64,000 nt of DNA, taken from contig NIVC01001695.1 of NCBI GenBank assembly GCA_002269645.1, positions 31,246-95,245 on the forward strand, in the 5' to 3' direction. The DNA is from Macrostomum lignano. Its lineage: Eukaryota. The notes under the pieces were generated by a model. That model was not told where the DNA came from. It made no database searches and saw only the letters and a program-made list of their open reading frames with translations. Made by a program: the position numbers and the translations under genes. Shown piece by piece: positions 23,019 through 64,000 of this stretch; the stretch's first letter is position 1, and each line of letters opens with the position of its first letter.

Positions 23019-23028
23019 TTTTATATTA

Positions 23029-23430: not shown

Positions 23431-23438
23431 TTTTGTCT

Positions 23439-25126: not shown

Positions 25127-31543
<6,417 letters not shown>

Positions 31544-31694
31544 CTGTCAGAGTTTAATGACAAGTGTCAAATCTTGTAAATCTTGGTTGTCAGGGCCCTG
31601 ACCCAAGGACCACAAAATGAAGTTTCCTTTGTTGGATTAATCGTTGTTATTAAATTTTTTTGACAAGCCCACAGGAATTGCTGCGAAAGCACCT

Positions 31695-33560: not shown

Positions 33561-34039
33561 ACTCCTGACTCAGACTCAAAAAATGAACTAGAAACGACAA
33601 AAAACGACTAGAAGACAACGAAAAAATCGTGACGAGAAAAAGTACAAAATACTGCGTCTTCGCCAGAGGTGGGAAAATACGAGCGTACATTAAAAAAATC
33701 TTGTTGCAACACAAGGGATAATTTGACATGCTAAAAATGACTAGCTTGAGACAAGATAATGTAATAGGACTGGAATACTGCAATCGTCTCAGTGATCTTT
33801 TGACATAAATAAACGCACGCATCACAGTCCCAGTCATAAACAATGCGTGCAGGTGCTGTCGAAAAAAGGTAAAAAGCCGATAAAATTCTCCCGAAGAAAT
33901 ATATAAACAAGAGAAATGACGAATCAGCTGCTAGAGTCCAGAAAAGTACATCGGAAATACGCAAATCAGTGCTGAGAGAGGTAAGTTAGGGTTACTGAAT
34001 TAGGATTTTAAGAGGAATTTATCCGTGAGACTGGCAATC

Positions 34040-34252: not shown

Positions 34253-34532
34253 GCCGGGGCTGTTGCCCCCAGGACCCCGGGTCCTGCACGTAATGGCGTG
34301 GTGAACTATCTGTGCAGTATGAGACTGGTATGGCCTTTATCCCAGCCAGCGATGCTCACACCTGCCTCCCCTGGCGGGCTGATAGCTCAAGAGACTCTGT
34401 CTCCTGATTTTCACCTTGCAAGGCGCACTTCGAAGGGTACTCGTCCCGTGGGTGTTAAGGCAGGCCCCCTTGGGCCCTGCCGAGCTGATTCGTTGGCGCC
34501 GGGTCCTGGTGTGACCATAAACGCACCCTCTA

Positions 34533-39200: not shown

Positions 39201-39948
39201 CGCGGCAGAGCTGCGCCGAAGGCAGCTTAGCGGCCGGAAATTTATTTTTCACTCTGACAGCCAAGCAGCCCTTCGGGCCCTCTGCCGCAGCACCGCCAGC
39301 TCCAGGTCCGTCCTGGACTGCAACACCCAGCTCAACGGGCTTGCGCTAGGCAACCAGGTGGAGCTCAGATGGATCCCGGGCCACGCCGGCTTCCTCGGCA
39401 ACGAGCGCGCTGACCTGCTGGCCAAGGCTGGCTCCGCCGGCGCGCTATTGGGGCCGGGCCCGGGTGCCCCCATCCCCGCCTCGGTGATCAATTCCCGCGT
39501 TAAGCGCTGGGCTGACTCCGAGCATCTCCGCAGGTGGCACGACACCCGGAATTGTAGGCAATCCCGTGCTGCCGTCCCCTGTCCCTCTCCTCTCCTGCGT
39601 AGAGCCCTCCTCAGGCTCAACCGCAGAGACCTCAGAGCAGTTAGCATGGCCCTCTCCGGGCATGGCTGCTTCTCTCGCCACCGCTTCCTTCAGGGCCAAG
39701 TACCCGAGGAGCGGTGCCCCTTCTGCCGCTCAGGCAGTGAAAACGCCGAGCATTTTATCTGCCACTGCCCGGTTTTCACCAGGGCCAGGCTTACTCACCT
39801 CGGGCCAAACCCGGTTCTCTCCGACGTTTGCAGGCCCGAGAGCATCCCACTGCTCGCCCGGTACCTCAGGGACACCGGACGAGCTGATTTCTTCCCCACC
39901 GTCGGTGAGGAGGACCGCGCTGCAGGCGAGACCGACGGGTCCCCCTGA
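36245..39948 (+). CDS. LINE ORF2: APE endonuclease - RT - RNase H - CCHC finger, one frameshift at ~37030-37110
   Basis: QINTQH, VQEPW, AGDVNAHH, SDHRFI; KAPGPDGI, FLDIEGAFDN, GGPQGGVLTP, GYADD; YTDGS, FQSEVLAI, SDSQAAL, WIPGH, GNERAD; CPFC...EHFICHC. Confidence 0.95.
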
Positions 39949-40060
39949 GCGACACCACTTCAACGGAAGTCGTTGGTCGCCAGGGGCTAGCGGAATGGGC
40001 GGTCTCCTCCGCCTCCTCGCTGCATCCGCCGGACGCCCCCTGCAGCTAAGTCAAGTCAAG

Positions 40061-40295
40061 TCTGGGGGGAATTAGCTCTGAGAGTCTGGGATTCTCTGGG
40101 GGGAATTAGCTCTGAGAGTCTGGGATTCCCTGGGGGGAATTAGCTCTGAGAGGCTGGGATTCTCTAAGGGGAATTAGCTCTGAGAGACTGGGATTCTCTG
40201 AGCGGATTAGCTCTGAGAGACTGGGATTCTCTGAGGGGATTAGCTCTGAGAGATTGGGAATCTCTGGGGGAATTAGCTCCGAGAGATTGGGATTA
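40061..40295. repeat. ~33-bp minisatellite, right part
   Basis: Same unit as 34040-34252. Confidence 0.9.
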
Positions 40296-40443
40296 TCAGT
40301 CAGGGAATTGGTTAGGGTTTGAAATCAGGATAATTTGACATCCTACAGAATCCAGCACACGATACTGATATCAGGTAGAGCTACTTAGATAGGCATAGAT
40401 ATTATATCATCAATTATAACCTTGGACTCGGAACTCGGCTGCT

Positions 40444-43400
40444 TCACTCGAACTCGCTGCGATCCCCAAAGATTTCGGTGCCCTGAAACGATGCCGACTG
40501 GCGAATGGGGGGCGGCGGCTGCGACTGCGGCTGCGCTGGCTGCGTCTCATCAGGCCGGTCGCCTTCGCTCCCGTTTGCGGCTTCGAAGGCCAGCGGCGAG
40601 GCCCGCCGATGGACCGCCGGCGCCCGCAGCGAACCGGGCCGGCGGGCTCGCGCCGACGTCAGCGGCGACTGCGAGGAGGCCGGCGGCGGCGGGTTGTTAA
40701 ACCTTACCGAGCCGTTTCGACGCAGGCTCTGCTGCTGCTGCTGGAAGGAGCCGGAGGTCGAGGCGACTGCGGCGTTGACGCTCCGGCTGGCCAAGGACAT
40801 GTCGTCGTCCTCCATGAAGCCGAGCTCCGACAGGTCGCCCTCGTCACCCAGGTCGGCCAGCTCGCGGGCGGAGCAGCGAGGAAACCTTCAAATTAATGGC
40901 GGGGAAACCAGTTGAAGATGACGGGAGGATGGGAGGATGGAAGAGTTGAACTGGCGTGCAGGGGAAGACTGACAATCCGGGGCTTATGGGGCAGAGCAAG
41001 GGAGAGGGGCACAGGGAGAGGGGGCACAGTGAGAGGCACAGTGAGAGGGGGGTACAGGGAAAGGGGCACAGTGAGAGGGGGGTACAGGGAAAGGGGCACA
41101 GTGAGAGGCACAGGGAGAGGGGCACAGTGAGAGGCACAGGGAGAGGGGCACAGTGAGAGGCACAGGGAGAGGGGGGTACAGGGAAAGGGGCACAGTGAGA
41201 GGGGGGTACAGGGAAAGGGGCACAGTGAGAGGCACAGGGAGAGGGGCACAGTGAGAGGCACAGGGAGAGGGGCACAGTGAGAGGCACAGGGAGAGGGGCA
41301 CAGTGAGAGAGGGGTACAGGAAAAGGGGCACAGTGAGAGGCACAGTGAGAGGCACAAGGAGAGGGGCACAGTGAGAGAGGGGTACAGGGAGAGGCACAGG
41401 GAGAGGGGCACAGTGAGAGGCACAGTGAGAGGCACAGGGAGAGGGGCACAGTGAGAGGCACAGTGAGGGGCACAGTGAGAGGGGTTTTTGAGAGGGGATA
41501 AGGACGGACAAGGCACACGGATAAAGTACAATTAGAAAACATTTTTGTAATTTGTAGCAGCAAAGCTGTTCTGCAGCACTCACTTAGGGATCTCTCTGGT
41601 AGCGTGGAATTTCTCATAGTTGATCTGGTACTCTCCATTATCTTTCTGGTAGGTGATCAGCCGCTCGAACCGGTGGCCCCAGCGGATCTCGGAGGGCAGG
41701 TAGCTGGACCGGGCCTGCGTTGTCATGCCCGTGGACTCGATGATGCCTTCCAGAATGACAATCAGCTCAAACTGCTCAGTCTGCAGATCTTCGGCCGAAA
41801 TCTCCCAGAATGGCGAGTTGCTGTTGATCTTGTGCTCCACAATGATTGGCCAGACCAGGAACAGCCTATCATAGCCGTCGTTGAATCCCAGGTCGATGTC
41901 GAACTGCTCAAGCGGCAGGACTTCGTTCTCCCTGGTGATTCGCTTTTTGATCAGGATGCCCCGGATATGGGCCTCAATGAGCTGGGATTTGCGCATGTCC
42001 CCCACCCGGAACAGCAGCACCATGGCGCCGTCACGCTTGCAGATCACGGCGCTCTTGCTGAACATCAGCGTCTCGGCGCGCTTCTTGGGTCGCGACAGCT
42101 TGGCGAACACCAGGCCGGTCATGAGGGCCTGGAGGGTTGGGGCGTTGGGATTCGATGGGAATGGAATGGGATTCGATGGGAATACAATGGCATTCAATGG
42201 GAATAGAGTGGGATTTGATGGGAATAGAATGGGATTCTATGGGAATACAATGGGATTCGATGGGAATAGAATGGAATTCGATGGGAATAGAATGGGATTC
42301 GATGGGAATAGAATGGGATTTGATGGGAATAGAATGGAATTCTATGGGAATACAATGGGATTTGATGGGAATAGAATGGAATTCGATGGGAATAGAATGG
42401 GATTAGATGGGAATAGAGTGGGATTCGATGGGAATAGAATGGGATTCGATGCGAATAGAATGGGATTCGATGGGAATAGTGGGATTTGATGGGAATAGAA
42501 TGGGATTCGATGGGAATAGAATGGGATTCGATAGGAATAGAATGGGATTCTATGGGAATAGAATGGGATTCGATGGGAATAGAATGGGATTCGATAGGAA
42601 TAGAATGGGATTCGATGGGAATAGAATGGGATTCGATGGGAATAGAATGGGATTCGATGGGAATAGAATGGGATTCGATGGGAATAGAATGGGGTTTGAT
42701 GATAAGAATCGAATGGGATTTGATGGGAAGAGAAACCAAAACGAACGCTTACTCACCTGAATAATGACGCCGAAGCAGCTCTGCACCATGACCATGAGCA
42801 CAGCCTCGGGACACCTGTCTGTAGGGTACCTGGTGCCATAGCCAATAGTGTGCTGAGTTTCAATGGAGAACAGCAGGGCCCCAGTGAAGTCGAATAGATT
42901 GACAACGCACGGCTTAAAGCCTTTTGGCTTGGGATGGTCGAAGTCGCCGTGGGAGAAGCAAACCAGCCACCAGATCAAAGAGAAGAATAACCAGCTAGAG
43001 ATGAAGGCTACGATGAAGAAGAGCAGGGCGTACCGCCATTTGATGTCAACCAATGTGGTGAAAATGTCCGCTAAAAAGCGGCGCTTCCGCTTTTTGATGT
43101 TGTACTGCGAGATGTTGCACTCGCCGTTCTTAAATACAAGGCGCTTGTACCTGCGGTCAGGGGCGATGGGTGCAGATGTGGCAGTGGCGGAATTCAAACG
43201 TGGGTGGGTGTCGTGAGACTGACTTTTGGGGTGGCGGGTGGCAAGGGACAGATTTTGGGGTGGGTTGTGGCGTAGGACGCGATTGGGGTGGTGGGTGGCG
43301 AGAGACGGAATTGGGGTGGTGGGTAGCGAGGGACGAAATTGGGGTGGGTGGGTGGCGTGGGACGGAATTTGGGGTTGGGTGACGAAGGATATATTGGGGT

Positions 43401-44310
43401 GGTGGGTGGCAAAGGACGGAATTTGGGGTTGGGCAGTAGCCAGTGAAGAAATCTGGGGTGGTGTGTGGCGAGGGAAGGAATTTGGCGGTGGTGGGTGGCG
43501 AGAGGCGAAATTTGGGGTAGGTGGCGGCGAGAGGGACAGAATTGGAGGGTGGTGGGTGGCGAGAGACGAAATTTGGGGCTGGGTGGCAGTGAGGGACGGA
43601 ATTGGGGGTGGGTGGCGAGGGACAGGTGGATGGCGAGAGGTATGAAATTAGTGGGTGAGTGGATCTATAACTTCTCGCTAAACTAATCTATAGAGAATCT
43701 TTAACTTTGCACATGGGGTGTTAGTTTTATTAACTTCAGTCAGATCCAGAAGATTTACTGTGGAGTTTATAAATAAGTTCACACTAGACACCGTCTGAAA
43801 CTTGATTTGCATTAACGCTGCAGACTAGAGTACGCGTACACAATTTGGTTGACAAAAGTGCTTGACTTTATTAGCATTCATTAGTAAAGGCAACTAGATA
43901 GAATCAAATGGATATTATACACCACTGCTAATATGGGCCGGCTCTACACTGATAATCACTTAGGTAAATAGCTCCGAATGAATCAATGAATGAATGGTTA
44001 ATTAGCTTGACACACAACAAGCGGCATTTTCTTCTTACCGCCGGCTACTTTTGGCTTTGCTTTCTCGCCAGGATTTGACAGTTTGCTGCGGCGGCGGCTG
44101 CTGAGCTGCTGCGGCGGTGCTGGCAGACCGCTGCTGCCGCATACCAGAGCTGAAGCTGGGCATCTGGATGGCGACAGCTTCCGCGTCTGCCGCCAGGCCG
44201 GTCACTGCAGAGGCGGCCGAACTTGTTGGTCGCAGGTTGCCGAAGAATCGGCCACTGCCGGACAGCAGACGCCTCGGCCAGGCGGCCGACTCGCTGCCTT
44301 GGGTTGTCAT
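40444..44310 (-). CDS. kcnj: Inward-rectifier potassium channel (Kir/KCNJ family). Exons 44310-44039, 43150-42757, 42128-41584, 40885-40444
   Basis: RLVFKNGECNI, DIFTTLVDIKWR, LFSIETQHTIGYG filter, GLVFAKLSRPKKRAETLMFS, FELIVILEG, TTQARSSY; in-frame GT-AG junctions. Confidence 0.95.
41000..41480. repeat. G/A-rich minisatellite (ggggcacagtgagaggcacagggaga)
   Basis: Intronic tandem array. Confidence 0.9.
42150..42730. repeat. 21-bp minisatellite (gggattcgatgggaatagaat)
   Basis: About 27 copies, intronic. Confidence 0.95.
43200..43630. repeat. Degenerate G-rich minisatellite
   Basis: ttggggtggtgggtggcgag-like units, intronic. Confidence 0.75.
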
Positions 44311-48718: not shown

Positions 48719-50198
48719 GCTGCGAAACAGCAGAGGCCTGCCAGTCCGCTGGTGCTACGTACCGACATTGCCGACTTACCACGGCGGCGCGGGCACGTGC
48801 TTAGCCATGGACTTTGGCTGCTCCGATCACTACATTAAACTGTCATTGTGCTGCGTCGCTCAACGCGGAAGTCCGCTAAATCTGGTTGACGAGCGCGCCT
48901 TCGTCCTGACTCCGTCGCTTCGTCGAGCTCAGATGAGCAAGTTCTCCGACTTTGTCGCTCTGTGCATCAAGCAGATGCTCGTTGACAACCGGGTGGCCTG
49001 CACGAGCGGCTCCGCCACCGTCTACATGGGCGTTGCAGCCGGCTTTGACGTCTGGGTGGAGGCCCAGCGGCAGCCGGCCAGCGCAACGGTGCAGACCGCT
49101 TCCAAGGGCTATCAAATGCCCGGCTTTGTGGGGAGCGACTTCGTACTGAAGTTTCATGCAAGTGCATGCTTTCATTCTAGAAATTGTGATCGAGTTTCAT
49201 TTCCTATGCTTTCCTCTTCCCTTCTCGAGGCTTAAGTTCACATAAAAATCTCCGTTCGCCTGAATTTTCCTGAAAACTAATTGCAGAAGTCAAGAGATGG
49301 TGCAGTAAAATCTCCCAAAAATTATTTGTAGGAAGCGTTCAAGAGAATCGACCTGACCGTAGAAATCGTTACGGTGATAAATGACGCAGTGGGCACCCTG
49401 CTGTCAGGCGTTTATCAGGCATTTCTTGGCGGAAACAGTGCGGACTGTTCCATCGGTGTACTGTGCCACCGGATTGGCGCCAACCTGGCCTACCTGGAAA
49501 CTGACCAAGACTTCCTCGAAGTGTGTAGCTTGGACAACCGTCTGCTGCTCCGAAGACCAACGGGTAACGGTCACTGCGTTGTTGTCAACTCGGAGGCTGG
49601 CTTCTTCATCGGGCAGAATAACGAACTCAATGATCTGGCGAATGTTTTCGATAAAAGTGTAATGAATGAGCTGAAAGCGGTGCTCCGACTGGAGTGCATT
49701 ATCTCTGGCGCGTGGTTTGCCCACCTGTTGGAAAGGTGCATTCGCATTCTGATCAAAACGAATGCGATCGATGCTTGGTCACCAGCTGGAGAGAACTGGA
49801 CGCTAAACCAAGCAAAAGGCTTCGAAGTATTCACTTTGTTCGACGCCCTGCATGTCGAAAAGAGTCCGCCTAACGAGGAGCTGGCAGCGAACCTTGGTCG
49901 ACTCCTTGATCTCCAGAACCTGTCTCGTGCCGATGTGTCCCGCATCGCTGTAATCTGTAAGGCCATTGTGGGCCGCAATGCGAGAGCTATTGCAAACAGC
50001 ATCATAGCCATTGCCCAGTGCTCCTACGGTGTCACTTTTCCCAAATCAATGGCGATTTCTTACGGTGGCAACTTGTTTGCCTCTCTGTTGCAGCTGCAAG
50101 ATTTGCTGCAATCCGAGCTGAACGAACTTAAGCCAGACGGAACTGAGGTGAGAATTGCCATCCGCGCTTCGTTCTTATATAAAGGCAAACTTTATTAA
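48719..50198 (+). CDS. Highly divergent hexokinase-like protein (exons 48719-49157 and 49332-50198; 5' part not located)
   Basis: LAMDFGCS (phosphate-1 loop), KFSDFVALCI, SKGYQMPGFVGSDFV, VINDAVGT, IGANLAYLE, VNSEAG, ECIISGAWF and YGGNLF align in order with hexokinase motifs. Confidence 0.7.
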
Positions 50199-50219
50199 CT
50201 TCAAGGGCCACATAGAGAA

Positions 50220-50760
50220 TCTATGAGAGAGGAGAGAAGAAAGATAGGAGAAAGTAGATGCGAGGGAATAAAGAAGAGAAGAAAAACAAGAGACGAGAGA
50301 GGAGAGAGGAGAGAGGGAGAGGAGAGACGAGAGAGGAGAGTGGAGAGAAGAGAGGAGATAGAAGAGATGAGAGGAAAGACGATAGAGGAGAGAGGAGAGA
50401 AGAGAGATGAAAGAGGAGAGAGAAGAGACGAGAGAGGAGAGAAGAGATAGGAGAGAGAAGAGACGAGGGAGAATAGCAGAGAGGAGAGGCGGGAGACGAG
50501 AGGAGAGAGGAGAGAAGAGAGATGAAAGAGGAGATAGAAGAGACGAGAGAGGAGAGAGAAGAGAGGAGAGAGGAGAGAGGAGAGAGAAGAGAGAAGAGAC
50601 GAGAGAGGAGAGAGGAGAGACGAGAGAGGAGAGAGAAGAGACAAGAGAGGAGAGAGGAGAGAGGAGAGGCGAGAGACAAGGGAGGAGAGAGGATAGAAGA
50701 GAGAGGAGAGACGAGAGAGGAGAGACGAGAAGAGAATAGGAAAGAAAATAGAAGATATTA
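50220..50760. repeat. Purine-rich (GA)n-type low-complexity tract
   Basis: Direct. Confidence 0.95.
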
Positions 50761-51293
50761 TTAGAGAGAAGAGAGCTAAAAAGCAGACGCAGGCCTTGAT
50801 CGGACCGGATTTCTATCGTGAATTTTCGCAGGACCCGAGGCTCAGATAAGAGAGGCTTCGCGGGCCGAAGTTTGCCAACCCCTCTCTTAAAAGTTTAACA
50901 GAATTCACCAAGCATTCGATTTGAAAGCGCACTATTGATTTTTCAGATTTACCTGCTGCATTCGAATGCATCGCTGGGCTGCGCAGTGACCGCCCTGAGT
51001 GCCGGCCTGGCTGCCAGAAAAAAAATTGAGTTTTTGTTCCAGCCAAAGCTTTGATGAATTAAAAATACGATCTGTTCTGTCTTGCTTATCAAAGTATTTT
51101 ATTGCACATAATATAATGTATAGATGAGTTTTGCATTTATATTTTGTCGTTTTGCAAGATGCACTATACAGATGCATTGTACTTTAAGTGAACAAAACAT
51201 TGCAAGAATTAGTACAGACTAGTATCAAATGAAAACAAGCTAAAACCCACCATTTAGTAAGAGGCATGAGGATCTCGTCGAAGCTAATGTACA

Positions 51294-51955
51294 TGTAGTG
51301 AAGTGATACATTTTGACTCAAGAAAGTTCCCATCCAGATTCAATGTATTTTAACCAATGAATGCGCTCCAAATAACAAAAGCCGAGGACACGACCCCAAT
51401 CTCAACCAATGAAAAACAGTTATGTACCATCCAATGCGATCAAGACTGAAAAGTACTATAAAAGCTCATGTTAACCAAGCAAGAAGCCCCCCCTTTCTCG
51501 CTCCGCCTCTCCTCGCCTTTTCTCTCCTTCGCCCTTCTCCCAGCCGACCTCCTTTTGACTAATTTTGATTAACACAGTTAGGGTCTCAACCCAAACGCTA
51601 AAACTGATAAATTGACTCACTAAAGCTAAACCAACACCCAATCCACGTTCTACAATAGACTGAACCTTCGGTTCACCCGAACAATTAGAAACACCTTGTG
51701 ACTTAAATCGAACGAGCTTCTTATTTGGAATTCCACCTTAGACATTATATTTTGTGAGAAAACATCTCGAGATCGTGACCATCAAATACAACGGTCTGTA
51801 AGTTAACATCAAGTGTTTGCATCATCAGGAAAAGTCAGTTGAATCCGCCGCCTCAGTTATTCGGCTCTCACATTGATATTTGAAGTAGAACAAGAGCCAT
51901 AGAAGTGAGAGACCAGAAGAAGAACAATAACGCACATATATTTTAAAATATTTCA
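51294..51955 (+). repeat. Probable 5' LTR (~660 bp; start uncertain by a few nt)
   Basis: TG start, two AACCAATGA boxes, TATAAAA at ~51457, ends in CA just before the PBS; the second LTR is not in the window. Confidence 0.65.
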
Positions 51956-51956
51956 C

Positions 51957-51970
51957 TGGTTCCCTGACCG
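51957..51970 (+). promoter_or_regulatory. Primer-binding site complementary to the tRNA-Glu 3' end
   Basis: TGGTTCCCTGACCG is complementary to ...CGGTCAGGGAACCA of eukaryotic tRNA-Glu. Confidence 0.8.
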
Positions 51971-54288
51971 TACTTTTCCTCCGATGCTTTTCACCACAAT
52001 AGCCGCTATGCCCTGCATGGGGTAGACAGCTATAGGCGTGGCTGATGGGTGTGAACGGTTGGACTGGCTTCCCCCCCCCCTCCCCTTTGAGCATTCGAGA
52101 CTGTCAATAATACATATTCGAAGAATGAATCGTAAATCACGAGCTCTCAAATTCAAATTCAGAATTCAAATCGGTTCTAAGTTTTGTCCAGTGCACTGAG
52201 ACCTGATTCAAGTTATTTCAAATTCAAAGGATCCATGAAAGTCAATAAATTATCGTTCCGGAACAATTACAATTTCAATTTCACTTCAATTCAAGAAACG
52301 TCGTCGAACGTCTGATATCGAGTTCTTATTCTCAAGCCTCAGAGCTTCAATGCAGAAATTCAATTCAGTTATTCGGATCCTCAATTGTTAAAGCTTCAAA
52401 GCTTCGATTTTTCAAAAGACCGCGGCATCATCAATTGTTCAAGTTTATTTAATGTTGGACGCCTCTTCCTTCACTGCTTTTCCACAGAATAGCAAAGTCT
52501 GCTCTGGATTTCTTCATATATATTTGAAACTCTCCAAAGCGACTGAGCCATTCGATTTCCTCCTCGGTTTTTCCCAGTGTGTGGCCACATCTAGAAAACT
52601 GGCTTATCTTAGATTCTCTGCGCCGTTAAGCGCCCGAAAGAAAGAACGAAAACGCAAAAAAACCTGACGAGCTATTCCAACCAAGTCACTACAGTAAACA
52701 TCAATCAAAATCTGGAGCCACCACTTTCTTGCTGTCAGAAAACTTTTTCGCTTATCAGACAGGTTGCTTGTCTAACCATTCATTATCTTCCTTGATTAAA
52801 GCCCAAGATTCGCTGTTTGCCAAGCCTGCGTGCTTCATCTGGAAAACCTTGCTTATTTTCGTAGACCGCTTGCCTAGCCTTCCATCACTTTTTCTTGATT
52901 AAACAATCCAAACTCACTGTTTGCAAAGCCCACGAGCCCCATCCATCAAATCCTCATCGACCCAAGTTTGTTTTTTCGGATTGCTGATTCTGGCGGTTGC
53001 CCTTTATAGATCATTTTGATGTAGAGATTAGGATGCTAGGGAATTTTCTTGTGTGTTTATTCAGCTTCAGTGCCCTCCAACAAATCCTTATCTTAAACAA
53101 GCTGCCCAAGTCAGACTTCGCGCGCATACTTAATCTCCTAGAGAGACCTCCTTTCTTAATTAAAGCCATCAATCAACTTCATTTCCCACGAGAAAATCTT
53201 TTCCTTAATCAAACTGTCCAGGCCAGCTCCATCCTGCCACTCACTCTCCGGTTCAGCGACCTTTTCACGATCTCTGATAAACAATTTCCCCAGGAATTTT
53301 TTTCCTTTCCTAGCCATTTCCCGTTTTTGTATGATGGATTAAGATCCAAACAACTTCTACTTTTCTCTCATCTCCCTATTGCCAAAGGCAATACATGTTT
53401 AGTGTTCCTCAGCACCGACTCCCCGAGCTCCATACATGTACCATAATCTTTCCTTGTCTCTTGTTCATGGTTTTCTTTCTATCATTGTCCTCGTTACGTC
53501 TATAATTGCATTGCAAAAATACTACTTCAAAATAACCATTAGATCGCAAAAATAATAAAATTTGAAAACACAAAAAAAACAATACCATTGCTTATAGTTC
53601 ATCTCGTATAATCCGTACTGCTCTTATCATGTTAAAGTTACAAAATGATCAGTCCGATCAATAAAAAATTATAAAATTTTCAAAAAAATTAAAAAATAGC
53701 AAATTTATAAAACTACAAAAACATTACTCTACGTTTGCTTAAAATTATGAAATCAACCCCCTAGCTGAAACTCGTCAGATAGTTCAAAATTCAAATTCGA
53801 AATTCAAAAAGCCAGAACAAATTCTCAGAAGAAAACTGCCGACTTCAAGAAAAAGAAACTGCCGACTTCAATGATACAAATTCGATTTTATTGGCCACCA
53901 CTGATGTCCGTCTAGTCCAACATTCAGGAGCTCCTTTATCAAATTCAGTTTCAATAAAAGTTTCAGAACCGATCAAAACGGCAGTTCAATTCAAAATTTC
54001 AAAATTCAAAGTTTCAGAACCGATCAAAACGGCAGTTCAATTCAAAATTTCAAAATTCAAAGTTTCAGAACCGATTTCAATTCAAAATTACTTCGATTTC
54101 CAAAGCTCGTTGCAGATCACAGTTAAAAAATCACACAGTCTCTCTTTCTCTCCCTTCCCCAGCCAGTCCGCCAACCGCAACCCTGAAAGCCACTGCCGTT
54201 TGCTCACTTTGAATTTGACACTCTACTTTGCTATTAGTTACATTTTTGTGCTATTGTTGCCTTGAAATTATTGATTGAATTCTTGTTA

Positions 54289-57200
54289 ATGACCACACCT
54301 GTCCGAGATTTACGTTCCGGACCAGTTTTTCAAAGCTCAAATATTAACAGACCCCCTGAACAAAATTTAGAAACTTCTGACCGCCAAATAGGTGAACAGC
54401 TCCCACGAAATAGTTCACCAGTACCTAACCTGTTTATACCAGATAACGTTGAGTTTAATAACCCTCTCGCGGATCATTTTGAATACAACCGTGCACACTC
54501 ACCAGCACCCAGTTCCATCCTAACAGACGCGGACGAAACAGTTCAACCGGCCCCAAACGATATTGCTGAAGAACCTACTCTAGATATGGCTGATCAGGAC
54601 GGCGCTCCCCATGTTGATGCTGCAGCGACAAATGCTGTCCGTGAACTTACTGATGTTATGAACCGCAGTCTGCAATTGCAATCAAACCATCCCGTCTCAG
54701 CTACTGCTCTTGCTGAAATTCGTCAATCCCTGAAAGGAATCGACCAAATGCATGACTTCCGCTCCTTCACTGAAGAGTTCGACTTGATCACACGCTCCTT
54801 TGGACTATCGGAGAACGCAAAGATTCGGCTCTTCCCGCGACTACTGAATGACCTTCTTAAACTCGAATACAGTCGCCTCTCTGCCGTAGTCCAAGCCTCT
54901 TATCCAGCCACCATTAAGGCACTATCTCAACGCCTTCGGGAAGTAACCATTGGCTCGGCTCTAACGCTGCATAATGCAACAACCCGGAAACAACAGTACG
55001 GCGAACCGTTCCTGTCTTATTTCACCGACATTCGTCGAAAGCTCAGGTCAGCTATGCCGGAAATACCGGAAGAATTTCCGGAAGGTGCCGGTCCGGAAAC
55101 ACCACCCGCGAACCAAGCTGTCATCGACCAGCGCAACCGAGACTTCCTTGCTACCCTGATGGCTACGACTATCAACAATGCACTGCCCTACATCAAACGA
55201 GAACTCTTGAAGCAAAATATCACCACGGAAAGTACGCTAATCAACAAGGCCATCCGCGCCGAACAAATCCGCGACTCCACCATGGACTCTGATGGCACTG
55301 ACTTGAAAGCTCTCACAGAGCGTCTAACTACCTTAGAAAAAACGACGAAGGAAGCCAATCAGCAGGTGGTTGCCTCCCTGCAAACACAAACCAAGCCACC
55401 TATCGCTAATATGCAACAGAAGCCCACTTGTTATCATTGCGGTCGACCTGGACACTATGCCGCCGACTGTCGTCGAAGGAATGACCAACAACCTCGTCCC
55501 TTCCGACCTAACTCAAGCGATCGAAGGAACACAGCTCAATACGGCTCTGATGCCCCGCGGGATCGTTACCAGCAGGAACCGCCACGATTGACCTGTAACT
55601 ATTGCCGAAAACCAGGACACTCTATTAACCAGTGCCGACTACGAGCCCAACGTACACAAGGCTACGGTCCACCGGCGACACAACAATCACGATTTCCACC
55701 CCGTCAAGACTATGGAAACCGGCCTCAGCAACGCTATCCGCCTCGATACAACGGCGCCAACAATCAACGACAACCTCCGAGATTTGCGCAACAACAATAT
55801 CCACCGATACGCGCCATCACTGCTCAGGACCCTGAAACGTCCCACCTAGGATGGAATCAACAGCCGCAGATTGGATGGACGACTCACGACGCTCCCGAGT
55901 CTGCCCAACTGATGCACATTGCTACAGTTGATGAACGCCCACCGACTTTTGGAAACGAAATTCGCTACTCTGGAGACGCTAAGCAGCTGAAATCCTTACT
56001 CAAAAAACCGACTACTGCTTCTGCGACTATCAACTCTATCCGCCTTTGTACGGTTGAAAGAATGACTGACACCTACACTCCACCGACCAGCAACAACAAC
56101 CGCGAGAAAACCGTGAAAGCTTCCGTCGGAATTCGCCGATCACTACTGACACTTTTTCTCCTGTGCCTAGCAACTTCACTCTTCGCACTAGCCAACGCTA
56201 CGCCGGTAACGACGTCAACTCCACCATCGATTGAGAGACAATCTCACGAGGGCTTCATTGACACACCAATGGTCTGTCCGTACAACCAGATCCCACGAAT
56301 TTTCACGATACCACATGAGATCCGTTGTGAACAGCTCAAACACCAAACAACGCCGACACTCCCGTTGAAACTGGAACTTTACACAACAAACGTGGAAACC
56401 AGTTCCCTGGTTATGACTGTCTGTTTCCGCGAGAAAATCACTATTAGATGTGATAAGGCGGTGATAAGAACCTGGACATCCGCCCTGGTAGAGTTGGAAC
56501 CGCAACCAGTCACTCAAGCTGATTGTGAAAACTGGGCACGAACAAAGCTATCTCCTGATGGATCATTAGTGTTAAAGACTGCGTCAACTCAGTCTATCCA
56601 ACGCCTGCAATCGACATTCAACACGCAAAATGCTGTGCGTTGCACTCCCGGTTCCCATTCAGAACAAATAGTAACAACAGTGATCACCGGAATCCCAGCC
56701 TACTCAACAGCAGATCAAAAAATGGAATCTTTGTCCTTCCCAATGGACAACTGCAAACTCACCGACAAATTTTGTACAATTAAAACAACTGCACAAGAAA
56801 TGCGAGCTTTCAACCTACCTTTGCCAATACTAACATCCCCCTGGGATCCTTTGGAAACTGAAGCAATCTACCAAATTGACGTGAAAGGACCAAGACATCT
56901 AAATCTTATTTGGACACCTCCACCACTCGCTGATTGTCCTTTAAAACCATTTCGTACTCTTGAAGGCAACTTAAACTCAGGCTTGTTCTTAACTAATGAT
57001 CAAACATTGGGACTAACCTTCAACCCAGTGCCGTCGACTCACACTCTCACCTGCACTGGCGTCCGTAAGACGTTGTACCTTTCAACGCAAGGTCTATACG
57101 TAGACATCCTCGACAACAAAGAAGCAGAATTTCTCGCCACCTTACGAAGCCCATTAGAAGAAGCTACTCCAAAACCTCAAACTAGCGAAGAAACCACTTC

Positions 57201-60200
57201 TTCGAGACAAAAACGTCGTTCACCACCAGCGATACTACCAACGCCACCAACAATATTACCCGTTCAGCAATCGACGACTCAACATCCTTTCACTACGACA
57301 ACTCAGTCACGACAATTCCTACCGCCGCAACCTTTACGACAAGAGCGACCTGATCATCCACCGACGTCAAGCACTTCTACAACAATGGCGCCAACAACTA
57401 CGATACTAACTACTACAAAATCAACACCAACAACTACAATTTTGACAACGACAACACCACCGACTACAACGACAACACCACCGACTACAACGACAACACC
57501 ACCGACTACAACGACAACACCACCGACTACAACGACAACACCACCGACTACAACGACAACACCACCGACTACAATGACAACACCACCAGCTACGACGACA
57601 ATGCCACCGACTACAACGACAACAATACCTACCACAACCGTAACACCGACAACTTCAACAACCACCACTGCTACAACCTCAGCAGCAACAACGACAGCAG
57701 ATTCAACTACGATGACTACAAAAGTGACGACACAACCTCGTACCACCACCACTTTACCGCCAACAACCTCAACCTCTAGCAGCACAACCAGTGCACCAGC
57801 AAAGTCTGCAACCTCAACCTTCACGACAAACTCACCAGCGACAACAACAGATCCACAACTGGCTTCTATTCATACGAATCTAGCAGTTCCATATCACGAA
57901 CCACAAGGTGGTCAACCGGATCTCCTACTACTACCACGCAACAAGCGAAGCACAGATGACAAAACCATCGCAGCCCCTTCAGGCAACTCTACTGCGCAAC
58001 TTTCATCAACGTTCGCATCCGCTGAACTTCTTGCTGGACAACTACAAGGAGCTGCTAGTAAAGCTCGAAAAGATCTTCTCCAAGTACAGAGGCAGCTGGC
58101 AACTACTCAATGCCTGATGTACGCAACTAATCTCAAGTACAATCGACAGTTATACTACACACAACCAACGCTCGCTGCTCGACTCTTATTAAATGATCCT
58201 TTCTTGCGAGCTAGATCCATTGCTGGATACCTCTTCGTCTACCAGTGCAAACCCCTACATCAGTTTCGCTTTGTCCAACCAAAGTACAAGACGAACCAAT
58301 GCTTCACGCGCCCCCCACTGGAATTCCGCCTACAAAATTATACCGTTCTTGGATTTTTGGATACAACGACTCGTATTGTCTCCACAGCTACTCCAGCTCT
58401 AATCTCATGCGACGCCTTCCCACACTACTACCTGCCTAAACAATCGATGCTATTCAAGACCACACTAAATTTTTCGAGGTTTGAACCTACAACCGCTAAT
58501 GTCAGATCCGATGAAAACTATCGATTGTCCGATTTGCAAACTTCCGTCTCCGAGAGCATCTTCAAACCTATGGGAGATATCAATTATACTTCACTTCGTA
58601 GCCCAATAACGGTGACCGACCTAATGCACCAGTTCATGCAAACTCGCGATTTTCTGATTACAGTTTTCAAACTTCCGAATCGAACACGACACAGGACAGC
58701 CCATGCTGACAGTGCATTCCTGGACTCAAAACTAGCTCTCTTCAATCTATGGTCTTCGTCGATATTTAACTGGGATCGACTAGTCGCAAACTATCAAGAA
58801 AAGTTCGTCTTAACAGCAGCTGTAATCGTCTACATTGCCGTTATTATCTTCGTGTGCAATCTTGGCCGACTCTGCGTCGCCAGCACCATCCGTTACGGCA
58901 GAACGCACACTATACAAGTGCTGCGGCAACAACGAACTCCAACTCAAGTGGAATCACGAAACGACTACTCCCAACAACAGCAACTGATACCACCAAGACG
59001 AGCGCCAACACCTTCGGCACCCATCGAAACGATTGAACTTCGTGCCACCCTTCCGCCACCACGGAGACCACCACCAGAACCGAAAGTTCCAAAATGGCCA
59101 GCAAACTACTCATACGCCTTTGTTTTGAAGCACCTAACAACAGCAACAATGATCAACCTGTGGTGCCGCAACGCACCGCATACTCGACACAGATGCACCG
59201 CCCTCATTGACAGCGGCGCCTCGATCTCCTGCATCTCACCGGCATTCGCCAAAAAGCTTCGAGTACCATTACAAGACACCAACATGAACGCCATTTGTGC
59301 AGGAGGACAACAACTAAACCTCAACAAAAAGGCTACTTTTGATCTCGAAATCGATGGACGCAACCACAAGATATCGGCCTTTGTGCTCGACACCCCCGAC
59401 GCTGACTATGATTTGCTCTTAGGAGTAGAAACCTTTAAGTCACTGGGAATACCACTACAATTCGACTACTCGAAAGCGACAGCTAAGCTTGGCAATGAGC
59501 AATTTGCGATGCTCAACTCCATCCAACAGTTGCAAGAAACCTCTGCGGTGATGCAAAACAAGCTAGAGTTACCACCACAGACAACGCACCAAGTCACGCT
59601 GAAACTCTCTTCTCGACATGAGCCAACGATTCCTGTCCTGTTCGTCCCTAAGGACCACACGATCCAGAAACACCAGTTGATGATACCAACTTGCCTTGTT
59701 TCTGTCAACCCGGACGGACAAACTATCACTGTGGAAATTGCCAACCCGTCGCTGACAACGCAAACCTTGCATCCTCAACAAGTCATTGGAAATCTGGCTA
59801 ACATGTCTGACTACAACATCGTGCGCCCAGCAGCTCAAATCAACAGTCTCCGCACGCTGCAACAAGAAGCACCTACGACTGACATGATCCGTACTCAACT
59901 CAAACAAGCCAACCAGCACCTCTCAACCGAGCAGAGTGAACAATTAGTTACTCTAATGAACAAGTACCGTGACGTCTTGGCACTACTGCCAACCGACATG
60001 GGTTGCTCTACCCAATACACGGCTCACCTGCATCTACACCCACACTCTGAGCCAGTCACGTCCAGACCCTATCCAATCGCTCATGGACTACAAGAACGGT
60101 TTGATGAGCTCATCGAAAACTTCCGTCAAAAAGGAATCATCAGTCCGAGTGAATCGGAATACTCAAGTCCATGTCTTCTCGTGGAAAAGAAGACGCTCGA

Positions 60201-60498
60201 CGCTCAAGGTCGCCGACAACTAAGACTCGTGACGGATTACCGAAAACTGAACAAGCTAATTCGTGCTCCTAGCATCCGACCTCCGAAGATTCCGGATTTG
60301 CTACATCGATTGAAGAACGCTAAACTGTACACACTCTGTGACCTAGCAGATGCTTTCTACCAAGTTCGGATTGATCCAGAAAGCACAAAATACACTGCGT
60401 TCATTGCACCCAACGGCCTACTTTGGAATTCAATCGACTACCTCAAGGACTCAAGTCAAGTCCAGTCCAGTCCAGTCCAGTCCAGTGCCGTCTTGTAG
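54289..60498 (+). CDS. Gag-Env-PR-RT(N-part) polyprotein, >2000 aa uninterrupted
   Basis: CYHCGRPGHYAADC and CNYCRKPGHSINQC knuckles; internal signal peptide; Cys-rich ectodomain with RQKRR and RNKR sites; TM helix; ALIDSGAS protease; LRLVTDYRKLN and DLADAFYQV. Confidence 0.92.
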   Translation: MTTPVRDLRSGPVFQSSNINRPPEQNLETSDRQIGEQLPRNSSPVPNLFIPDNVEFNNPLADHFEYNRAHSPAPSSILTDADETVQPAPNDIAEEPTLDMADQDGAPHVDAAATNAVRELTDVMNRSLQLQSNHPVSATALAEIRQSLKGIDQMHDFRSFTEEFDLITRSFGLSENAKIRLFPRLLNDLLKLEYSRLSAVVQASYPATIKALSQRLREVTIGSALTLHNATTRKQQYGEPFLSYFTDIRRKLRSAMPEIPEEFPEGAGPETPPANQAVIDQRNRDFLATLMATTINNALPYIKRELLKQNITTESTLINKAIRAEQIRDSTMDSDGTDLKALTERLTTLEKTTKEANQQVVASLQTQTKPPIANMQQKPTCYHCGRPGHYAADCRRRNDQQPRPFRPNSSDRRNTAQYGSDAPRDRYQQEPPRLTCNYCRKPGHSINQCRLRAQRTQGYGPPATQQSRFPPRQDYGNRPQQRYPPRYNGANNQRQPPRFAQQQYPPIRAITAQDPETSHLGWNQQPQIGWTTHDAPESAQLMHIATVDERPPTFGNEIRYSGDAKQLKSLLKKPTTASATINSIRLCTVERMTDTYTPPTSNNNREKTVKASVGIRRSLLTLFLLCLATSLFALANATPVTTSTPPSIERQSHEGFIDTPMVCPYNQIPRIFTIPHEIRCEQLKHQTTPTLPLKLELYTTNVETSSLVMTVCFREKITIRCDKAVIRTWTSALVELEPQPVTQADCENWARTKLSPDGSLVLKTASTQSIQRLQSTFNTQNAVRCTPGSHSEQIVTTVITGIPAYSTADQKMESLSFPMDNCKLTDKFCTIKTTAQEMRAFNLPLPILTSPWDPLETEAIYQIDVKGPRHLNLIWTPPPLADCPLKPFRTLEGNLNSGLFLTNDQTLGLTFNPVPSTHTLTCTGVRKTLYLSTQGLYVDILDNKEAEFLATLRSPLEEATPKPQTSEETTSSRQKRRSPPAILPTPPTILPVQQSTTQHPFTTTTQSRQFLPPQPLRQERPDHPPTSSTSTTMAPTTTILTTTKSTPTTTILTTTTPPTTTTTPPTTTTTPPTTTTTPPTTTTTPPTTTTTPPTTMTTPPATTTMPPTTTTTIPTTTVTPTTSTTTTATTSAATTTADSTTMTTKVTTQPRTTTTLPPTTSTSSSTTSAPAKSATSTFTTNSPATTTDPQLASIHTNLAVPYHEPQGGQPDLLLLPRNKRSTDDKTIAAPSGNSTAQLSSTFASAELLAGQLQGAASKARKDLLQVQRQLATTQCLMYATNLKYNRQLYYTQPTLAARLLLNDPFLRARSIAGYLFVYQCKPLHQFRFVQPKYKTNQCFTRPPLEFRLQNYTVLGFLDTTTRIVSTATPALISCDAFPHYYLPKQSMLFKTTLNFSRFEPTTANVRSDENYRLSDLQTSVSESIFKPMGDINYTSLRSPITVTDLMHQFMQTRDFLITVFKLPNRTRHRTAHADSAFLDSKLALFNLWSSSIFNWDRLVANYQEKFVLTAAVIVYIAVIIFVCNLGRLCVASTIRYGRTHTIQVLRQQRTPTQVESRNDYSQQQQLIPPRRAPTPSAPIETIELRATLPPPRRPPPEPKVPKWPANYSYAFVLKHLTTATMINLWCRNAPHTRHRCTALIDSGASISCISPAFAKKLRVPLQDTNMNAICAGGQQLNLNKKATFDLEIDGRNHKISAFVLDTPDADYDLLLGVETFKSLGIPLQFDYSKATAKLGNEQFAMLNSIQQLQETSAVMQNKLELPPQTTHQVTLKLSSRHEPTIPVLFVPKDHTIQKHQLMIPTCLVSVNPDGQTITVEIANPSLTTQTLHPQQVIGNLANMSDYNIVRPAAQINSLRTLQQEAPTTDMIRTQLKQANQHLSTEQSEQLVTLMNKYRDVLALLPTDMGCSTQYTAHLHLHPHSEPVTSRPYPIAHGLQERFDELIENFRQKGIISPSESEYSSPCLLVEKKTLDAQGRRQLRLVTDYRKLNKLIRAPSIRPPKIPDLLHRLKNAKLYTLCDLADAFYQVRIDPESTKYTAFIAPNGLLWNSIDYLKDSSQVQSSPVQSSAVL
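57370..57850 (+). repeat. Coding Thr/Pro tandem repeat (TTTTPP)n, mucin-like
   Basis: accaccgactacaacgacaac 21-nt units in frame within Env. Confidence 0.9.
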
Positions 60499-62830
60499 CA
60501 TTGTTAACAGCTGACTCTCCAAATCAGATTGCCTACTTGGACGACGTCATGCTTATCGCCGAAGACTTCACCGGCATGCTCAAAGAAGTTGAACGCTTCT
60601 TCCAAAAGTTACGACATCATGGATTGCGAATTTCACTACGAAAATGCATCTTTGCTAAAACAGAGGTACAATATCTTGGATTTGTTGTTTTCTGCTCAAG
60701 GCATTAGACCAGCCCCCAGCCTTATCGAGAAATCAAAACCTTTCCTGTGCCTCACACGGTTAAACAACTACAATCTTTTCTTGGACTTGCAAATTTCTAC
60801 GAACGCACATTGCTGGCTACTCACGAGTAGTAAAGCCACTTCTGAGTATTATCAAAAATACTTCAAAACCCAACAAATTCGTCTGGACGAACGCTGGCAA
60901 ACAGCCTTTGAAAAGCTGAAACAACTTCTCTCTACGGATATACTACTGGTTCATCCAAATCCGCGAAAACCGTACTTCCTGCACACTGATGCCTCGGATA
61001 CCGCATTGGAGCAGTACTATCACAGCTAGACGACAGCAACCACCAACGCCCGGTTGCCTACATTTCTAAGACGTTAAGCCAAACTGAACAACGCTTACCA
61101 CCGATTGAACGCCGAAGCATACGCCATCTATTGGGCAATAAAGAAGCTACACGTGTTCCTCTACGCTTCTTTACCAACAGTTCCACGTCTTCACTGATCA
61201 CCAGCCACTCAAGAGTCTATTCAGTGACAAGCAGCAATTTCAAAACGACTTCAGAAGTGGATTCTAGCGCTACAAGATTACAACTTCACTCTCAACTATG
61301 TGAAAGGCAAATCAAACGTAGTAGCGGACTGCCTTTCGCGCATCCCCAAAGTCTGTCAGATACAATCGCTGTCAACATTCAACGGACTGCAGGATGCCAT
61401 TGATCAAGACCCATTACTGTCAACAATCAAAGCACTTCTATCGAAAAAATCACCCACTCACGAGCTGTCCAAGAAAGACCAACAATATGTTCGCCGACAC
61501 CTGGCACGTTATTTCCTGGACGGAAACACTCTATACTTTGAAGATGACGAAGGACGAAGCCGCCTCGTGATACCAACACGCTATCGTGAAGCTCTTTGAC
61601 AAGTAACCACTCGACAAGTAACCACTCGACAGCCCTTGGTGGTCATCTAGGTCACCAAAAGACAGCAGACAAAATCAGTCATTTCTACTACTGGCCTACA
61701 CTACGGCAAGACGTCTTCAATTTCATTAACAACTGCGAAATCTGCCACAAAGCGAAAACAGCACCTCGACTGCGACCGCTGCACAAAGCCGTCAAATTCA
61801 ACGAGGTTTTCTCTCATTTGGCTATCGACCTTGTAGGTCCACTGCCACCAGCTTCACACGGCCGCGACGTCTACAAGTACATACTCACAGCCCAATGCGG
61901 CGTTAGCAAATTCCTGTTCACAATCCCGCTAACTGAGACAACTTCTGCAACTATCTGCAACAACCTCTTCAACCGTGTGTTCGCTTTCGCAGGACTACCA
62001 GCACACATCATCTCAGATAACGGACCCCAATTCATCTCGCAAGAATTTCGAGAGTTTATGGGTGCCCTTGGAATCCATCTAATCTACACCTCGGTGTACC
62101 AACCATCCAGCAACTTCGTCGAACGCGCACACAAGACACTGAAGCAAACCTTACGGCCTTTGTCCATGACAAACCAGATCTCTGGATTGACTTCCTACCT
62201 GCGGTGACACTAGCAATCAATACCGCCGCACACTCAACGATGAATGAATCACCATTCTACTTGTTCTTCGCTCGAGACTTCCTGCCACCCAACGCACGGA
62301 TCATGGAACACCAGACAACTGCATACATGGACGTTATTAAACCAGTCAATTTGACCTGTTCAGCTATTTTGCTTGCCAGAGAAGTCGCCAAGGAACTTCT
62401 GCACAACTCAGCTGAACAGCGCGCTGAAAACTCTGACAAGAAGATCAACCGCCGCTACATACGCCCAGGTGCACGATGCTACTTGGATGTCTCAGCAACA
62501 AAGGAGACAAAATTCTCCAATCCTTATCGTGGCCCAATGCGTCTATTAGCATGGCTCTCCGATCAGAACGCACTGATTTCTGATGTCAACCGACCAAGCG
62601 AACGACCAATCGTGGTACATGCCTCCAAGCTGAAACCATGGCCTGGAGATGGACTCAGCGCTGGACCTAGTCACCTACCTGAGTTCACAACTGATGACAT
62701 TCAGGTCCACCACAACCATCGGCCGCCATTGAGCAAGTCCATCGCGCTGCAAACCACGTCTACTGATGAGCCACCAGTTCAGCCACAGACGCATGGCTAC
62801 AACCTAAGATCAAAGAACAAGAAGTCGTGA
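60423..62830 (+). pseudogene. pol: Remainder of pol (RT C-part, RNase H, integrase), multiply frameshifted
   Basis: FNRLPQGL, YLDDVML, QYLG, LHTDASD, YVKGKSNVVADCLSR, GGHLG, C..C, AIDLVGP, ISDNGPQF, NFVERAH. Confidence 0.93.
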
Positions 62831-64000
62831 ATGATCAAAAAACCTTCTAAACTTCTTTTCTCCTTTCTTTTCCTTGACTGACAATATTGCTTTCTCTTCC
62901 TTTCTTTCTCTTCTTTTTCTTTCCTTCTTTTCTAGCTTTTGCTCTCTCTCTGCATTGCGACACTTTACGTGACTATAATGAACTTTTATTTTCCGTTTTA
63001 TCAACAAAAGCTACAAAAATTTCTCTCTTTTCCCTCTTTACATTGCAGAGCTCACACGCTAAAACAATATTTTGTGTATCTATTGCTTTTCTCCTTTTTC
63101 CTTTCTCTTATGGATCCATTTCCGCAACCAGTGGATATCCGACCACAGTTAAATCATGATCTTATTTGCCTCGCAACCGTTGTTGCTTGGTTCACTGAAG
63201 CAATATTTTATTCTGAAACTATTGGTGAACCCAACGGCTACGCATGGCCTCCGCTTTCTTCTCTCGTTTTTATGTTATCCGCTGCCATCGCTTTTATCCT
63301 AAGATGCTCCGCGTTTACGAATTAGTCTATTTGGTATGCTGCGTCGTACTCACTCACGACCACGTATACAGAACTTTTCTCCCACTATGAATGATGTTCT
63401 CAGCCGCAGCTTCGTACCAATCTACATTTTCTTTTTCTCCTAATATGTCTATCGACGATTTCTTTCAACTCTCTGCTTCTACTCTCCCTCAATCATGCCT
63501 GCGCTTTAACCAAGACACTTGGCCTTTGTTGCTTTCCTCTCTGCGCTACCCATGGCAACAATTCCGCCATGATGCTGCTAATCTTTCGGCGCAACAGTTA
63601 ACTTCTACGCTCCAAAACTATTTAACCTCCTTCGATTCTCTCGCCCCTTATGTTTATCAAATTTTTCCTCCATTTTCTCCTCGTGCTACTAAGAGCTATG
63701 ATACGCACGCTCAATCGTTTGTATCCGCACAATTTTTTCTTTACCCACGCTGTTTTCATTCTCTCAACGCGTTCAAGAAACTTTGCTTTTATAATTATCG
63801 ATTTTTATTCTCGCTCGGTAGTTGCCCATACTATCTTCCCTTTCTCTTGTCCTCCGCTTCGTCGATATTTATACGATATTCACCGTATACGAAATGCTCT
63901 TGTTGGCTACCCTAACACCTTGCCAGAGTATGCCGCTCTTCATACCTTCTCCATCAAGCGTATTCAGCATTCTCCTCCTTCTGATCTTAATATTAATTTT

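Follow-up and report, generated by a model that had tools for sequence, protein, structure and literature searches.

In Nematoda, Bryozoa and Platyhelminthes, the elements described in the main text of the survey by Chary & Hayashi (eLife 2026, PMC13524379) carry envelopes of the herpesvirus gB type only, and do so in several clades in the order GAG-ENV-POL; the nematode case is credited there to Sacco et al. 2022 (J Gen Virol, doi 10.1099/jgv.0.001739), with ENV and POL called flipped. We analysed a stretch of 64,000 nucleotides from the flatworm Macrostomum lignano (contig NIVC01001695.1, positions 31,246 to 95,245; hereafter the window), in which an open frame at 54289-60498, with env between gag and pol, belongs to a Ty3/gypsy long terminal repeat (LTR) element. 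A reading made from the letters of this DNA (the sequence-only reading) had raised the possibility that such an order was undescribed. This is not so, as GAG-ENV-POL is published (PMC13524379); the gene order itself is no discovery, and the window family is absent from the table in that article. The element is real, selected and recently mobile. We consider it likely that it is a Ty3/gypsy (Metaviridae) element of the GAG-ENV-POL, gB-type kind that works through a membrane-threaded polyprotein.

The frame starts with the ATG at 54289, is free of stops up to the one that closes it at 60498 (2,069 aa; six-frame listing and translation) and holds, in this order, the Gag knuckles, a signal peptide, an ectodomain, a transmembrane (TM) helix, an aspartic protease (PR) and reverse transcriptase (RT). 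This arrangement, as placed by the sequence-only reading, was confirmed by translation, Pfam and hydropathy. The CCHC knuckles of Gag lie at aa 381 and aa 436 (nt ~55430-55635; Pfam zf-CCHC at aa 380-395, E 2.5e-7). Pfam places the protease at aa 1634-1717 (PF13975/PF13650, E 1e-6), where D(S)G falls on aa 1641 (nt ~59209), and matches the N-terminal part of RT at aa 1968-2045. Strong hydrophobicity is confined to two segments of the protein, one at aa 619-637 (nt 56143) and the other at aa 1506-1525 (nt 58804). These peak at 2.4 and 3.0 in the hydropathy scan, as compared with 1.3 for the peak that ranks after them. The ectodomain had been put at ~870 aa and called Cys-rich. Its length is 867 aa, in agreement with this, but it is not Cys-rich throughout: its 14 Cys are divided between two folded halves (10 + 4), and the stretch that separates these (aa 961-1220) is free of Cys and 66% Ser/Thr/Pro. 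R-x-K/R-R occurs just twice in the protein, at aa 973 and aa 1217, flanking this stretch. Similarly, the frame is open, but 60498 is not the end of the gene. RT, RNase H (RH) and integrase (IN) run on in shifted frames to 62830, split by six breaks from ~60430 on, and the frame ends mid-RT only because the window copy is broken. The class of the fusogen, the mucin between two furin sites, the downstream accessory open reading frame (ORF) and the rest of the element were all missing from the earlier account. The features of the element are listed here by their positions in the window, with pN/pS standing for the ratio of nonsynonymous to synonymous differences.

51299..51955, + strand: 5' LTR (TGAA...TTCA), repeated at both ends of sister copies; ends and flanks, 40 genome matches scored
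51957..51969, + strand: primer-binding site (PBS) TGGTTCCCTGACC, complementary to the 3' end of tRNA-Glu; sequence and host tRNA scan
51970..54288, + strand: leader of 2.3 kb with 20 upstream ATGs
54289..56133, + strand: Gag, with a putative capsid region, two CCHC knuckles and a Q/R/P-rich tail; Pfam knuckles, pN/pS 0.22-0.38
56134..56202, + strand: predicted internal signal sequence, with a basic n-region, an h-region and a small-residue c-region; hydropathy, charge asymmetry in 9/9 families
56203..57216, + strand: N-half of Env, modelled as gB-like domains I-II, 10 Cys, ending at the furin site RQKR (aa 973-976); AlphaFold 2 (AF2), Foldseek, pN/pS
57217..57948, + strand: mucin-like Thr/Ser/Pro insert of ~245 aa, ending at the furin site RNKR (aa 1217-1220); composition, repeat
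57949..58803, + strand: C-half of Env, with the long domain-III helix, domain IV and the membrane-proximal region, as predicted from phmmer and the family profile; pN/pS 0.05-0.12
58804..58863, + strand: predicted transmembrane stop-transfer helix; hydropathy, flanking charges
58864..59160, + strand: predicted cytosolic linker from TM to protease, basic and then Pro-rich; distance from TM to catalytic Asp kept
59161..59478, + strand: aspartic protease LIDSGA; PF13975/PF13650, pN/pS 0-0.03 where measurable
59989..62830, + strand: RT (YLDD), RNase H and integrase (H2C2, core, C-terminal part); translation, Pfam
63109..64000, + strand: accessory ORF downstream of pol, broken in the window; 309-318 aa in sister copies

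We considered the possibility that env had been joined to gag and pol in the window copy alone, through a one-off in-frame insertion of foreign sequence or through an artefact in an assembly that is rich in indels and holds probable chimeric copies. The window was compared with 20 fetched sister copies (21 in all, with the partial copies C2531, C2530, C87 and C1861 left out). All 20 carry the env segment and are collinear with the window from Gag to RT, being aligned over 6,110-6,111 of 6,112 bases; env in frame between nucleocapsid (NC) and PR, as first read in the window, is a trait of the family. For each of 22 landmark junctions, 17-21 copies give coverage and 7-19 of these have the junction open; the two sides share a frame in 17/21 copies at the NC-signal junction and in 12/21 at the TM-PR junction. 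Among 12 3' LTRs seen, the 3' flanks were of 11 different kinds. Third codon positions accounted for 1,548 of 2,361 substitutions, and pN/pS against four copies (comparisons that all share the window and hence are not independent) was 0.04-0.11 in the N-half of Env and 0.05-0.12 in its C-half; the mucin gave 0.44-0.55 and Gag 0.22-0.38. The bias toward third positions and the low values for env therefore argue that it is translated and constrained and, by these measures, env is under purifying selection. Collinear copies and purifying selection speak against a one-off event, as does the presence of the same order in other families and in proteins from unrelated samples (see below). Collinearity, open junctions and sibling families together refute this explanation, to which we leave next to no probability.

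The copies differ by 221 frameshift events, of which 177 concern a single base. Runs of at least 3 bases are the site of 92 of the 221, as against a background of 20%. Two copies that are only 3-5 substitutions away from the window still carry 2-3 indels. Such scattered, run-associated breaks are in keeping with decay and errors in the assembly, and not with a stop or shift that is programmed, and in the alignments the breaks of the window family look like assembly noise and decay. For 54289-60400, we rejected a programmed frameshift or stop common to the whole family, as even the most widely shared frameshift site there occurs in at most 7/20 copies.

The order extends beyond the window family. 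A protein search of the genome with the C-half of Env gave 131 matches from 128 of the 166 candidates scored, 16 of them in frames that stay open for 2,400 codons or more. Thirteen representatives were fetched. In four (L099, L100, L102 and L103), Gag, both Env halves, PR, RT, RH and IN share one frame, of 2,859, 2,458, 2,503 and 2,538 codons, respectively; the other nine are broken, yet their order is unchanged wherever domains were found. P0002, a Macrostomum lignano protein by its source name, is identical to the L099 frame over all compared domains. Relative to P0002, RT identity is 100% for L099, 34% for L100, 41% for L102 and 42% for L103. Proteins from other public samples agree: P0028 and P0030 each hold knuckle, env and protease, P0023 holds env and protease, and in P0041, P0042 and P0067 env stands ahead of RT, each time within one protein. 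The search for sister elements with the Gag-Env-Pol order, which the sequence-only reading had proposed, thus yielded four single-frame families in the genome as well as these proteins. P0041 (env-PR-RT-RH-IN, RT identity 60%) is filed under the name of a bacterial metagenome-assembled genome and is likely animal DNA in a metagenome bin. The homologues also include an Anisakis protein, P0015, with env, protease-like and AAA_11 helicase parts. A word-seeded search for homologues of the N-half of Env gave 0 matches among 1,629 candidates (proteins of 1,137-3,621 aa), and a profile search of longer proteins matched P0002 only. P0004 and P0005 were dropped as evidence of splicing, both being chimeric gene models.

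An RT tree was built with a quick method from 52 rows, i.e. 8 frames of the worm's own genome and 44 of the first 45 of 84 homologues (39 left out). The own-genome families grouped with P0041 and P0042 (SH-aLRT 99), which is suggestive for these sequences; the env-bearing P0067 fell elsewhere, on a long branch. No RT of a named NERV (Nematoda endogenous retrovirus) is among the 52 rows. The NERVs of Sacco and colleagues reportedly have a continuous gag-env-pro-pol ORF with an env like the glycoproteins of Nyamiviridae, are said to carry extra small ORFs or an Upf1-like helicase, and are reportedly restricted to chromadorean nematodes. Judged by these reported features, our sibling families resemble NERVs in their continuous gag-env-pro-pol frame, with a nyamivirus G as the top viral fold, and differ in that the host is a flatworm rather than a chromadorean nematode and in that no helicase was found among the 3' ORFs scanned. 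In view of the reported host restriction, we did not file the window element, from a flatworm, as a NERV.

With the elements in the main text of PMC13524379, the window element shares a Ty3/gypsy pol, a gB-type env between gag and pol, a multi-copy state and a flatworm host, as well as an ectodomain of the HSV/gB type (HSV, herpes simplex virus) placed between a signal and a TM. Its domains I-II resemble the C2 cysteine-bridge group of that article when read by eye, unaligned. Among the nine flatworm rows of the published table (PMC13524379), the sole Macrostomum row, Platyhelminthes_Rhabditophora_Mlig_errantivirus_2 (863 bp), fits our sibling L103, which has an 864-bp LTR and, as PBS, the same 12-mer, TGGTGATCTCGC; it does not match the window family (657-bp LTR, tRNA-Glu PBS, ~14.9 kb). 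The main text of PMC13524379 speaks of ORFs and does not discuss in-frame fusion, topology or a mucin with two furin sites, and its figure supplements or sequence files may show fusion. Literature searches for a fused polyprotein or for a description in Macrostomum returned nothing beyond this article, and in the texts so searched, a scope outside which the NERV study lies, the processing logic and the two-furin mucin proposed below are undescribed.

In the PDB, RT-RH of a sister family was closest to Ty3 (E 2e-60, versus 9e-43 for 8r0s, a caulimovirus-type enzymatic polyprotein, and 1e-33 or weaker for retroviruses). Compared with Bel/Pao elements (Atlas, Tas and carriers of a chuvirus G), env lies upstream of PR rather than downstream of integrase, and the RT motif is YLDD. 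Pfam gave no Peptidase_A17 match, and one weak DUF1759 match, below cut-off, in the Gag of a sibling. By these sequence features, the window element is not Bel/Pao. As described in the consulted text of PMC9094657, Atlas virus (Belpaoviridae) is similar in that Env lies within a single stop-free polyprotein of comparable size (2,828 aa in Atlas), and differs in its Gag-Pol-Env order, its class II phlebovirus-like Gc and its YVDN motif, in contrast with env before PR, a predicted class III envelope and YLDD here.

The ectodomain alone had seven weak matches in the PDB, six of them to herpesvirus gB (best E 0.095; phmmer). An Env profile of ten families matched gB of Epstein-Barr virus with an E of 5e-15, and 7/10 aligned members matched PF24664, the Monjiviricetes fusion protein. 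AlphaFold on the single sequence was unusable (pLDDT 33). The model was built on the ten-family alignment; it has a mean pLDDT of 58.7, with two confident halves, a disordered mucin and pLDDT values mostly of 70-93 in the N-half (model residues ~20-320). All PDB matches listed by Foldseek were herpesvirus gB-type glycoproteins (best E 1.7e-13), and the best viral match was Nyavirus midwayense G (E 5e-21). As judged from profile and model, the envelope is a class III fusogen of the herpes-gB/nyamivirus-like type. It has in common with the fusogens of herpesviruses and mononegaviruses (nyami-, chu- and borna-like) the predicted fold, a long domain-III helix after a furin loop and a C-terminal TM. 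It differs from them in sequence (8-12% identity), in having an internal signal and in a cytosolic tail the length of Pol.

A further difference from the class III fusogens of herpesviruses and mononegaviruses is that their furin loop is expanded here into a mucin of 214-260 aa with a site at each end. In 7/10 aligned families, a short loop with one furin-type site occupies this position, and 3/10 (the window family, L099 and L105) instead contain a mucin bounded by basic sites on both sides, of which the first is only R-x-x-R in L099 and L105. Both strict sites are kept in all 9 window-family copies readable there, at a spacing of 214-260 aa. The insert holds 21-nt tandem units (repeat D16), and length changes at the start of the repeat are in frame in 11/11 copies. 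The C-half that follows has 4 Cys and 5 N-glycan sequons. Release of an internal glycopeptide by two furin cuts is known for p27 of respiratory syncytial virus F, which is a functional analogy only.

The topology was assessed from charges. In 9/9 family representatives, the internal signal is basic on its N-side (+2 to +5) and neutral or acidic on its C-side (+1 at the most). Basic residues come after the TM helix in 8/9, and the catalytic Asp comes 115-153 aa after the start of the TM in 9/9 families. Combined with the established rules of membrane insertion, this pattern would give a cytosolic Gag, a lumenal Env and a cytosolic Pol, as the sequence-only reading had proposed. An upstream Met is not retained. 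Of the 19 copies read, 9 have Met at M592, 9 have Val and one is broken, and two families lack any Met within 90 aa. This indicates that the signal is internal, and we rejected a separate env ORF with M592 as its start. Gly is found at position 2 in 0/5 Gag starts, which accordingly lack the Gly needed for myristoylation. In flaviviruses and hepaciviruses and in the structural polyproteins of alphaviruses, an internal signal and then a lumenal glycoprotein come after the capsid protein, and the non-myristoylated Gag of foamy viruses reaches membranes through Env (the Env leader); both are functional analogies only.

These features suggest a sequence of events in which topology, processing and 1:1:1 synthesis are inferred. 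Translation would start in the cytosol, with Gag made first, and the internal signal would then send the ribosome to the endoplasmic reticulum, its N-side staying cytosolic. Signal peptidase would free the N-terminus of Env, leaving the non-myristoylated Gag on the membrane via the signal helix. The ectodomain would enter the lumen and be glycosylated until the TM halts transfer, and Pol would be made as the cytosolic tail of Env. Env trimers and Gag assembly would crowd the tethered proteases, which would dimerise, release PR, RT and IN by cleavage and also trim Gag. In the Golgi, furin would cut on both sides of the O-glycosylated mucin, resulting in a disulfide-linked two-chain fusogen, and enveloped particles would spread the element between cells and probably into the germ line. 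Synthesis would be 1:1:1, though the ratios in particles need not be, as selective turnover of Pol could shift them; such turnover alters particle ratios in Tf1 of fission yeast. The strictest version, that of an obligate flavivirus-like single-polyprotein enveloped retroelement in which the signal helix anchors Gag, Env trimerisation activates the protease and, in this lineage, a furin-excised mucin shield of variable length times fusion, is a tentative proposal that we regard as possible though doubtful.

Ratios could instead be set by splicing or early polyadenylation, with env-skipping mRNAs for Gag only or Gag-Pol dominating and the full polyprotein being a minor source of Env. To form a capsid, Gag is required in far greater amounts than Env or Pol, which would favour such a scheme, and so would the 20 upstream ATGs of the leader. 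Furthermore, the leader has a pyrimidine tract and AG at ~54162, 126 nt before the Gag ATG, and the LTR a donor-like GTAAGT at 51798. The donor-like site is kept in 30/30 LTRs and the acceptor-like site in 20/20 copies, so that the element may be spliced, the two sites forming, by their sequence, a possible splice pair. Yet this pattern was unmatched in four other families scanned. Moreover, a crude consensus scan, run with no shuffle control, found no donor-like site from NC to signal and no acceptor-like site from TM to PR, and families with RTs of just 34-43% identity have all kept these linkers in frame. We therefore regard the dominance of env-skipping messengers as unlikely and retain the membrane-threaded polyprotein as the preferred reading.

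Several results weigh against it. No copy of the window family in the assembly is open from Gag to integrase (0/17 fully covered copies), as compared with four open siblings; uninterrupted ORFs are an inclusion criterion in the text of PMC13524379. The junction between domain III and TM is open in just 7/21 copies, and we infer the full frame of the family from a junction-by-junction reading of the sequences and from the sister families. As some contigs repeat one locus or look chimeric (C172, C2365), the 21 copies are not 21 independent insertions. The capsid region of Gag had no match in Pfam or the PDB, and the window protein matched no fusogen family in Pfam. Finally, the AlphaFold model has a pTM of 0.33, and against gB it reaches TM-scores in Foldseek of just ~0.3 (query-normalised) to ~0.45.

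The lack of a copy open end to end would also be expected if the envelope no longer gave infectious particles, and either helped intracellular assembly by providing a membrane anchor or a scaffold for trafficking or was the remnant frame of a decaying family. In this respect, herpesvirus gB needs partner glycoproteins, and how GAG-ENV-POL elements enter cells is stated to be unknown in the main text of PMC13524379. Yet both Env halves are more constrained (pN/pS 0.04-0.12) than Gag (0.22-0.38), and neither the furin sites nor the cysteines have been lost. Two copies have LTR pairs of 100% identity, and stand-alone nyamivirus glycoproteins provide the nearest viral folds. Such a loss of infectivity appears very improbable to us, and the enveloped, membrane-threaded polyprotein is preferred over it as well.

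As a whole, the element is a Ty3/gypsy LTR unit of ~14.9 kb with an LTR of 657 bp that was defined through sister copies, its own 3' LTR lying past the contig end. The tRNA-end pattern matching the PBS had 32 matches in the genome, and ARAGORN called tRNA-Glu in 3/3 loci scanned. A purine-rich tract ahead of the 3' LTR was read in 2 copies. Among 24 rows of sequencing runs, 20 contain the stretch and none is recorded as RNA, which says nothing on expression. The target-site duplication is of 4 bp, exact in 3/4 same-contig LTR pairs and in 5/8 solo LTRs. The two LTRs are 100% identical in copies C695 and C2295, and these insertions are therefore recent. In C2295, the leader is interrupted by ~9 kb (G000:C2295:70926-79543), and the leader of the window has a ~63-bp tandem duplication (53957-54075) just upstream of the acceptor-like site. 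C172 (G000:C172:389070-418129) consists of two tandem copies that share the middle LTR, with outer flanks (TTAA/GTAG) swapped relative to C2365 and the window; C172 and C2365 are probably assembly chimeras or products of recombination between two insertion sites. The capsid part of the window Gag is 51% identical to the Gag of a sister family.

The accessory ORF after pol is open in 6/7 sister copies examined and under mild constraint (pN/pS 0.24-0.57); at its length of 309-318 aa, it had no match in Pfam or the Atlas and belongs to no known family. A second small 3' ORF of 73-147 aa (L043:8050-8472, - strand, and counterparts), past the end of the window, is far more variable than the rest of the element, with a pS of 0.33-0.42 against one copy; in sequence terms, this divergence suggests an exchange of the segment. 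The ORFs after pol differ between sibling families (L113:173-838 and 977-1540, L119:777-1520, L121:5799-6578). Those of two families encode RING-finger proteins (best E 4e-7 and 2e-4), and the third encodes a 260-aa protein of no clear family. They may be antagonists of host defence.

The window also holds other elements and genes. At 5673-23771 lies a Polinton/Maverick-like element of low GC content, with terminal inverted repeats starting AGTAGTAG and genes that appear fragmented, in which Pfam matched the following:

7282-8076: integrase core
11264-12046: Pox_A32 packaging ATPase
18930-20657: endonuclease VII domain
22065-23039: adenovirus mu-like protein (weak match)

A non-LTR retrotransposon at 34521-39948 has an APE endonuclease, RT and RNase H, with ORF2 over two frames and an ORF1 (575 aa) that matched no Pfam family. 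An intron-free hexokinase-like ORF (49332-50198; PF03727, E 4e-15) lies ~1.1 kb upstream of the LTR, with both bacterial and eukaryotic look-alikes in the Atlas. Arrays of mini- and microsatellites with units of 8-53 bp (1900-3550, 24350-33630, 40000-43700 and 50200-50780) give rise to long spurious open frames.

These findings add, in one tractable flatworm genome, related families whose RT identities go down to ~34% and in which Gag, a predicted class III fusogen and Pol share one frame. The topology signals are conserved across these families, the published table (PMC13524379) having one Macrostomum family. This would make it possible to test how capsid, envelope and enzymes can be built from one membrane-threaded chain and whether gB-type envelopes act without helper glycoproteins. 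The mucin with two furin sites, gained in one sub-lineage, offers a natural comparison with the siblings that have none.

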